From assembly GCF_030013205.1 (NCBI RefSeq), contig NZ_CP122648.1: 64,000 bases of DNA. One strand, 5' to 3'. Below the pieces are notes generated by a model. The model made no database searches. It was given only the letters and a program-made list of their open reading frames with translations, and was not told the DNA's origin. The position numbers and the translations under genes are program-made. This document shows positions 9 to 1,001 of the stretch, piece by piece (within the stretch, counting starts at the first letter, position 1; each line of letters begins with the position of its first letter). The stretch comes from Escherichia coli. Its GTDB lineage: Bacteria > Pseudomonadota > Gammaproteobacteria > Enterobacterales > Enterobacteriaceae.

Positions 9-1001
9 ATGAAGTTTCTTGGCATACTCGCCATTTATATAGGCCATTTCTACCAAGCATCAGGAAAATTATATCCTTTTGTTTTTATGTATCACGTCCC
101 TCTATTTTTCTTCATTTCAGGTTTTTTCTCATCATTAACAGACTTTAAATTCAACCCACATTTTTTAGTTAAAAAATTCAAGCGACTAATGGTGCCTTAT
201 TTCATTTTTGCATTTATAAATCTAGCGTTGATTGCGGTAAACAAAAACTACGATACCGAATCAATCCTTAAGTCTATTTATGAAATCATCTGCGGAATAA
301 GAAACACGCCTGCAGTTGGCACCATATGGTTCATTAACTGTCTTTTCGTTATAATAGTTATTGATTACATCACTTACACATTAATTAAAAACAGAACACT
401 TGTTTTAATAATAGCATTAGCGGTACATTTCTATACACAATTGTTAATGCCTCACAATCCACTAAGTGCGCCAAAGTGGTTTATGAATATTGACTCAGCC
501 TTAGCATACTGGTGGCTACTAGCAAGCGGCAGACAATTTTTTCCAATTTTAAAAAAATCAATCAATACATATAATAAACTCCTACCAATATGCATTTTCA
601 TAGCATCAGGTGTGTTTACGGCGTATGCACTATTCAATTCTCAGTTCATAAATCAATATATCATTAATACATACATGCCAAATTTATCCAAGATTAATAT
701 AGTTAATATAATCAATAATGACATTGGCATTTTAATCATTATCCTATTTAATGCTTTTCTTGCAAAGCGGCTATCCCGGATAAATCTACTAAAAAACATG
801 GGAAAAAACACATTAAATATATGTGGCTTTGAAATGGGTACAAAACTCTTAATTTCGACTGCTATTATGATCCCTGGGTTAAGACTTCTATTACCTACAC
901 CTCTATCAGCAGTCCTATACTCCTCAATATGTGTTATCTTTGCTCATCACATTACAACTTATTTATCAGCGAAATTCCCCTCGATATTCTCAATACGTTA
1001 A
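9..1001 (+). CDS. Acyltransferase family 3-like polytopic membrane protein (possible O-antigen/glycan acetyltransferase); 5' end may extend beyond window start
   Basis: 330 aa ORF, highly hydrophobic with many predicted TM segments and an LFFFISGFF motif like the conserved motif of Oac/OafA acyltransferases; AT-rich by inspection; reading frame is open to position 1. Confidence 0.55.
   Translation: MKFLGILAIYIGHFYQASGKLYPFVFMYHVPLFFFISGFFSSLTDFKFNPHFLVKKFKRLMVPYFIFAFINLALIAVNKNYDTESILKSIYEIICGIRNTPAVGTIWFINCLFVIIVIDYITYTLIKNRTLVLIIALAVHFYTQLLMPHNPLSAPKWFMNIDSALAYWWLLASGRQFFPILKKSINTYNKLLPICIFIASGVFTAYALFNSQFINQYIINTYMPNLSKINIVNIINNDIGILIIILFNAFLAKRLSRINLLKNMGKNTLNICGFEMGTKLLISTAIMIPGLRLLLPTPLSAVLYSSICVIFAHHITTYLSAKFPSIFSIR

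Follow-up and report, generated by a model that had tools for sequence, protein, structure and literature searches.

The window analysed here is a 64,000-nucleotide stretch of the Escherichia coli contig NZ_CP122648.1. Its left part, positions 1-10113, belongs to a defective prophage of the P2/186 type, delimited by gene annotations and by the repeats at the attachment sites. At the very edge of the window lies most of a gene for an acyltransferase-3 (AT3) protein resembling OacD (positions 1-1001, plus strand, from partial codon 19 to the stop codon), as established by the list of open reading frames, the full coding sequence and a match to the profile PF01757. Facing it on the minus strand are a tail-fibre assembly gene equivalent to G of phage P2 (1074-1670; Caudo_TAP, E 3.3e-28; GC 0.38) and a tail fibre gene equivalent to P2 H (1670-3181; Phage_tail_fib, E 8.1e-65, with a Collar domain). 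An earlier note, made from the letters of the window, had described the acyltransferase gene as adjoining a tail fibre assembly gene on the opposite strand, and the Caudo_TAP gene at 1074-1670 is that neighbour. RefSeq labels the pair in carrier genomes "acyltransferase family protein" and "tail fiber assembly protein".

The acyltransferase gene and its protein

The open reading frame at 9-1001 (+) encodes 330 amino acids, and the frame runs without a stop codon back to window position 1. Complete genomes that are 100% identical at this locus supply the full coding sequence (L001 19946-21001; 351 amino acids; WP_063502572.1), with an annotated start codon that precedes window position 1 by 55 nt. 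The window covers the 3' 94% of the 351-codon gene; codons 1-18 and one base of codon 19 fall outside, together with the conserved residues R15, W18 and D20 of the N-terminal part, and the window ATG at 9-11 is the internal Met22. The earlier note had regarded the frame as open to the window edge and the gene as possibly 5'-incomplete, which is what the complete genomes revealed. It had also raised the prospect of a truncated fragment with an in-frame stop just upstream; the upstream sequence has no such stop and gives the complete gene.

The gene is AT-rich, as the same note had remarked, with a GC content of 0.322 and a GC3 of 0.321, compared with GC values of 0.525 for H, 0.581 for J and 0.515 for ybjL. 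On its 5' side is a promoter-like block, TGnTACAAT, that is kept in homologues only about 72% identical in DNA; the predicted promoter, TGGTACAAT, lies 77-85 nt ahead of the start codon. Two homologues of about 72% DNA identity also conserve the start codon itself and the bases in front of it. The Shine-Dalgarno sequence is weak. Beyond the stop codon, between the convergent acyltransferase and tail-fibre assembly genes, a terminator scan and folding located a hairpin at 1007-1031 with a perfect 11-bp stem and a 3-nt loop. Its folding energy is -15.8 kcal/mol (z -3.8), and one of 200 shuffles folds equally well. This hairpin is likely to be a terminator, and of the two strands the minus strand has the better T-run.

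Several lines of evidence place the protein in the AT3 family. The profile search, run with the window-truncated protein, gave PF01757 (Acyl_transf_3) a score of 56.8 bits against a curated gathering score of 31 (E 2.4e-15; profile positions 5-280 of 326), so that the acyltransferase-3-like character proposed earlier is well founded. A search of 5.8 billion proteins returned 190 homologues, and PF01757 was present in all 120 matches listed except one partial sequence. The nearest homologues are two metagenomic proteins with 72-73% identity, followed by an enterobacterial group with 40-47%. Scans with NCBIfam, PHROGs and PADLOC yielded no specific family name for the protein.

The residues expected of such an enzyme are in place. 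The first membrane helix carries a K-X10-H motif from K23 to H34 (window 12-47, plus strand), recognized in the homologue alignment as the R/K-X10-H motif defined for AT3 proteins (PMC9558356). H34 (window 45-47), the presumed catalytic histidine, is present also in Sf6 Oac and SfII OacD. Nine residues, G33, H34, F54, F55, G59, R119, W128, D183 and E296, are invariant in an alignment of 47 sequences. Three of these, F54, F55 and G59, form the core of the LFFFISGF motif that the earlier note had singled out (residues 53-60; window 102-125, plus strand), in which F56 is nearly invariant as well. In the first cytoplasmic loop a KxxR motif, K77-F-K-R80 (window 174-185, plus strand), is the counterpart of RXXR and aligns with the essential R73/R75/R76 of Sf6 Oac (R73-A-R75-R76). 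R80 is invariant in a 10-sequence alignment, and the first position is a lysine, as in the functional SfII OacD (K-F-Y-R).

One departure was seen among the relatives. The representative of an OacD-like cluster of 346 members from Shigella flexneri (P0018) has a tyrosine in place of the invariant first-helix histidine (IYLGYLG vs IYLGHLG), a position that is histidine in SfII OacD (L002 7965-9011) and in every other homologue. The tyrosine form may represent an inactive allele, or else an uncommon variant that chanced to be picked as the representative.

AlphaFold2 gives a confident model made up entirely of helices, about ten of them long (pLDDT 92.6, pTM 0.90), and the hydropathy peaks agree with it, in keeping with the polytopic topology claimed before. 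The best matches among solved structures found with Foldseek are GWT1 and HGSNAT, with a probability of 0.82-0.99 and TM scores of 0.42-0.45; these are weak matches, with Foldseek E values of 0.06-0.6 and a sequence identity of 11-14%. A sequence search of the PDB with the acyltransferase returned zero matches, and no bacterial AT3 structure was found that way. PF01757 is the sole Pfam match, and the chain ends at residue 351 in the last helix. Because there is no SGNH domain, the protein is "AT3-only", like the Oac proteins, and either its AT3 domain or some partner protein must therefore carry out the final transfer step. Membership in the OafA type, in which AT3 is fused to SGNH, is ruled out for this 351-residue protein. 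The earlier assignment to Oac/OafA-type enzymes thus stands at the level of the AT3 acetylase family; within that family the closest characterised relative is OacD, and neither Sf6 Oac (23% identity) nor the SGNH-fused OafA. By alignment and model, the gene encodes a single-domain inner-membrane AT3 protein of about ten helices belonging to an OacD-like subgroup.

A decayed prophage between ybjL and rcdA

The prophage is located between ybjL and rcdA. A 27-bp att core, GTGGGTTTTTTGTTGCCTrAAATTTAT, is present at both of its ends, with attR at 10087-10113. Within the window the order is acyltransferase, G, H, I (frameshifted), J, W, V, a cargo gene with an FRG domain, S, R' fused to cII', an apl-like gene, CI, a small gene, integrase and the attR core. 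The prophage of strain W13-16 (O139:H1) reads ogr, D, T (truncated), E, E', FII, FI, acyltransferase, G, H, I (frameshifted), J, W, V, the FRG-domain gene, S, R'-cII', a small gene, CI, a small gene and int. The acyltransferase gene lies in that strain exactly between G and FI and is convergent with G. On the P2 map the G-FI interval is the Z/fun slot. The earlier note had assigned the gene to the variable cargo slot of a P2-like phage; the position at G-FI in W13-16 bears this out, and the part that has to be amended is the carrier, which is a defective remnant and not a phage.

A second low-GC cargo gene (window 5653-6588, plus strand; GC 0.37) lies between the baseplate gene V and the morphogenesis gene S. 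Its product has an FRG domain (Pfam E 2.1e-19), and among the PADLOC models it matches that of the candidate defence system PDC-S15 (E 8.5e-32). In strain 52F4, where a related prophage occupies the same site, the G-FI interval is filled by an invertase and alternative fibre genes, and a SIR2-family gene (L038 12777-14297) stands between V and S. Both cargo slots, G-FI and V-S, are variable. Elsewhere in the window, between rimO and dgcI, a gene for a RelE/ParE-family toxin and a helix-turn-helix gene (about 21588-22293, plus strand) look like a small accessory toxin-antitoxin insertion.

The low GC content is not confined to the acyltransferase gene. It extends through G to the 3' end of H, with GC climbing from 0.32 to 0.55 along this tract; the fibre tip and the assembly gene are found only in the same 17 genomes as the acyltransferase, and homology to other E. 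coli prophages begins only at window 1934-2223. Because these three observations coincide, the 3' end of H (about 1670-1930/2220), which encodes the receptor-binding tip, the assembly gene that serves as fibre chaperone and the acyltransferase gene make up one lineage-specific low-GC module.

The remainder of the prophage has decayed. Capsid, lysis and replication genes are missing, which leaves the prophage defective in all strains. The reading frame of tail gene I is broken into two that overlap (window 3178-3745). An R-like tail gene and a cII-like gene, both truncated, adjoin each other (window about 7045-7621), and this R'-cII' junction marks a deletion of the capsid, lysis and replication genes. 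Seven of the 17 carrier genomes, K_EC180 among them, have a further deletion between FI and D in which the first ~15 codons of FI are joined to an internal point of D. The tape-measure gene of W13-16 is truncated, and in EC556, EC571 and EC581, all from Japan, a further 3.3 kb or so of the prophage survives, with a replication endonuclease gene in it. Despite these differing deletions within the one ST1 clone (L001 19731-19778, L008 16110-19778), the acyltransferase gene is unchanged, at 100% identity, in all 17 carriers.

Homologues occupy the same ybjL-rcdA site in other bacteria. The remnant in Buttiauxella consists of ogr, a fragment of D, a full-length AT3 gene and an integrase fragment; in Leclercia an AT3 homologue stands directly beside rcdA; and on a metagenome contig the att core is followed by a pair of AT3 genes in tandem and by rcdA. 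Because decayed remnants in other genera keep a full-length homologue, the comparison argues that the gene is kept for the benefit of the host.

Two of these sites hold additional genes. About 1 kb downstream of the Buttiauxella AT3 homologue is a stand-alone gene for an SGNH domain (L018 8006-8761, plus strand), and the second AT3 gene in tandem on the metagenome contig (L005 3807-4910, plus strand) is different from the first. These might be partner enzymes or stacked modification enzymes.

Carrier strains and relatives of the protein

Positions 1-1100 of the window are found with 100% identity in 17 of 5,426 complete E. coli genomes. A DNA search with the same positions of 50,697 phage records revealed no phage carrying this allele. 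Compared over 25 kb, the window agrees letter for letter with ETEC4067, ETEC4069, ETEC4070, ETEC4071 and ETEC4079, and three indels set it apart from K_EC180. All 17 carriers are isolates from swine or wild boar with the wzx and wzy genes of O139. They correspond to the edema-disease clone O139:K82:H1, sequence type ST1, whose capsule locus, kps (PMC8798679), is present in W13-16 and P15-25. Because the 17 carriers form one clone (O139:H1 ST1), the association with O139 counts as a single evolutionary event.

The O139 gene cluster is present in 19 genomes of the collection. Two of them (VG12A2 and Z1323HEC0010), one from a farm environment and one from a human, lack the acyltransferase gene and have a cluster that is 99.6% identical, so O139 typing is independent of the acyltransferase. 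The cluster itself consists of rhamnose-synthesis genes, four glycosyltransferase genes, wzx and wzy, and it includes no acetyltransferase gene. The O139 repeat is described as a heptasaccharide in which Glc, GlcN, Rha and GalA occur at 1:1:4:1, and this description does not mention an O-acetyl group (PMC4906484). In K_EC180 the O139 wzy gene (L007 23063-24300) is annotated as frameshifted, owing to a 1-nt difference from the other 18 O139 clusters. This is likely to be an assembly error, because artJ, ybjI, CI and yoeB also have single-base frameshifts in that genome.

Among 50,697 phage records searched with tblastn, the only full-length match to the protein is OacD of phage SfII (42% identity over residues 15-351, E 6e-65). 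OacD adds the 6-O-acetyl group to GlcNAc of the S. flexneri O-antigen (O-factor 10; PMC9558356, PMC8973906). Uncharacterised proteins are as close or closer, many at 44-47% identity and two at 72-73%. By sequence the acyltransferase falls into the same subgroup as OacD; orthology is not established by 42% identity, and because the identity is only 42%, neither the acceptor nor the acetylated position can be transferred from OacD. Within Shigella, interchangeable function calls for pairs closer than this, OacB and OacC being 72% identical (PMC4206707). Sf6 Oac was considered as the closest relative and is ruled out, having 23% identity and giving no tblastn match at E 1e-3.

The relatives often sit beside genes for tail proteins. 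A 40%-identical E. coli protein is encoded in a P22-like prophage between the integrase gene and the gene for a tailspike with a P22-type head-binding domain, and a Proteus relative lies between the integrase and tail fibre genes of a lambda-like prophage. Seven of the 18 viral contigs with relatives are SfII-like; adjacent genes on the remaining contigs include three with Tail_spike_N, a Phage_tail_C_2 fibre, a Head_binding tailspike and a baseplate V spike. The oacC gene of S. flexneri serotype 6 is likewise reported to adjoin the tail genes of an SfII-like prophage (PMC4206707). One viral contig has its AT3 homologue convergent with a gene (L035 5049-7283, minus strand) for a tailspike that combines Tail_spike_N with a GDSL/SGNH esterase domain, a possible pairing of a deacetylating tailspike with an acetyltransferase.

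Proposed function and comparison with known systems

We consider it probable, by analogy, that the acyltransferase acetylates the O-antigen. This acceptor is favored because OacD, the nearest characterised relative, acts on O-antigen and because the gene occupies a cargo slot beside the tail fibre. The earlier note had suggested a possible serotype-converting O-antigen acetylase. OacD is a proven enzyme of this kind, and "possible" remains the apt word for the protein described here, whose acceptor sugar is proposed by analogy. Prophage-borne O-antigen acetylases are well established in Shigella and Salmonella, and the gain in the present case is specific to one clone. A literature search found no description of the acyltransferase gene in O139 strains.

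The enzyme might instead be active on another surface glycan, such as the kps-encoded K antigen capsule, enterobacterial common antigen (as for WecH), colanic acid or the LPS core, a reading that we rate as unlikely. Phage-borne acetylation of a capsule is known from NeuO, an enzyme of another family carried by prophage CUS-3 in K1 strains. The glycans modified by AT3-only proteins are many (PMC9558356), the clone is typed O139:K82:H1 with kps in W13-16 and P15-25, and the description of the O139 repeat makes no mention of an O-acetyl group (PMC4906484). These points are countered by the activity of OacD on O-antigen, by the relatives that adjoin the tailspikes of P22-like phages, for which O-antigens are the known receptors, and by the relatives in Leclercia, Buttiauxella and Proteus, which occupy prophage sites and not capsule or enterobacterial common antigen loci.

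It is also conceivable, though in our judgement quite improbable, that the gene is an inert passenger, an intact frame in a young remnant that is silent or has no usable acceptor in its host. Purifying selection is not measurable from 17 identical clonal copies, the neighboring phage genes J, W, V and S are likewise intact, and the Shine-Dalgarno sequence is weak. Nonetheless, at least three independent deletions or frameshifts have affected the surrounding prophage and none has affected the acyltransferase, far more decayed remnants in other genera keep full-length homologues with all of the invariant residues, and the promoter-like block is conserved. A main role in anti-phage defence without acetylation of a glycan seems extremely improbable. 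P2 Z/fun and related slots are hotspots for defence genes, and the V-S slot holds the FRG-domain gene matching PDC-S15 (E 8.5e-32) in this prophage and a SIR2 gene in the related one. The acyltransferase, however, matches no PADLOC model and keeps all of the catalytic-type residues of a sugar acyltransferase, and masking of a receptor by acetylation would already account for a defence benefit.

The gene would have arrived with a P2/186-type temperate phage, as cargo in its G-FI slot, and it has stayed intact while the prophage decayed. If O-antigen acetylation is the correct reading, its action may be outlined as follows. The TGnTACAAT block suggests that it may be transcribed from its own promoter, independently of phage late transcription. 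By comparison with the family, acetyl groups would be taken from cytoplasmic acetyl-CoA at the face formed by K23-X10-H34 and K77-xx-R80, and then handed across the membrane domain to the hydroxyl group of a sugar facing the periplasm. The acceptor would be the O139 O-antigen, as the undecaprenyl-linked unit or as the polymer, before ligation. The position of the gene suggests that the effect would be to alter both the O-antigen epitope and the phage receptor, so that phages using the unmodified O-antigen would be excluded, probably including the carrier phage's own kind.

A more far-reaching version, which we regard as speculative and very unlikely in its entirety, is that the locus is a domesticated remnant of an ancient P2-type lysogeny, kept independently at ybjL-rcdA in several enterobacterial genera, and that it produces a labile O-acetyl epitope of O139 missed by the published structure. 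Such an epitope could correspond to the heat-labile "K82(B)" antigen recorded by classical serology in O139:K82:H1 strains, and it could affect both the antigenicity of vaccines and the susceptibility of the clone to phages.

Should the enzyme be active, the edema-disease clone found in pigs worldwide (O139:H1, ST1) would have an O-antigen with an acetyl group that is absent from the reference structure, the one used in synthetic glycoconjugate work. Activity would have a bearing on serotyping, on the design of vaccine antigens and on the choice of therapeutic phages for piglets, the last because acetylation commonly blocks or enables phages that bind O-antigen. The locus also illustrates clearly how surface-modifying cargo is kept while a prophage decays.

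The closest known counterpart is OacD of SfII (SfII_25, YP_008318503.1). Both are single-domain AT3 proteins (349 vs 351 amino acids, 42% identity over 96% of the length) with K-X10-H, FFFxxG and KxxR in common; both genes are borne by temperate phages and are convergent with a tail-fibre assembly gene, followed by a terminator; and the host O-antigen is rhamnose-rich with GlcNAc in both cases. The carriers differ, since SfII also has gtr genes, whereas the gene described here resides in the remnant of a P2/186-type myovirus, and the O139 O-antigen is a heptasaccharide with GalA and alpha-GlcNAc. Oac of Sf6 (OacA, the 2-O-acetyltransferase of rhamnose I) is similarly AT3-only, with the histidine of the first membrane helix, FFxxSG and the arginine of RXXR, and its gene is convergent to the tailspike gene with a terminator in between. 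Its 23% identity, with large alignment gaps, places it in a different subgroup. OafA and OafB of Salmonella and OatA of Gram-positive bacteria share the N-terminal AT3 domain and the R/K-X10-H motif. The eukaryotic HGSNAT and GWT1 are larger proteins with other substrates; they are transmembrane acyl-CoA-dependent acyltransferases, and the structural likeness is consistent with transfer across the membrane from a cytoplasmic CoA donor.

With respect to position, the nearest comparison is the Z/fun locus of P2, which blocks phage T5. Like the acyltransferase gene, it lies between G and FI, is oriented opposite to the tail genes and is low in GC; its gene content is unrelated, and the same place is taken here by a predicted sugar acyltransferase.
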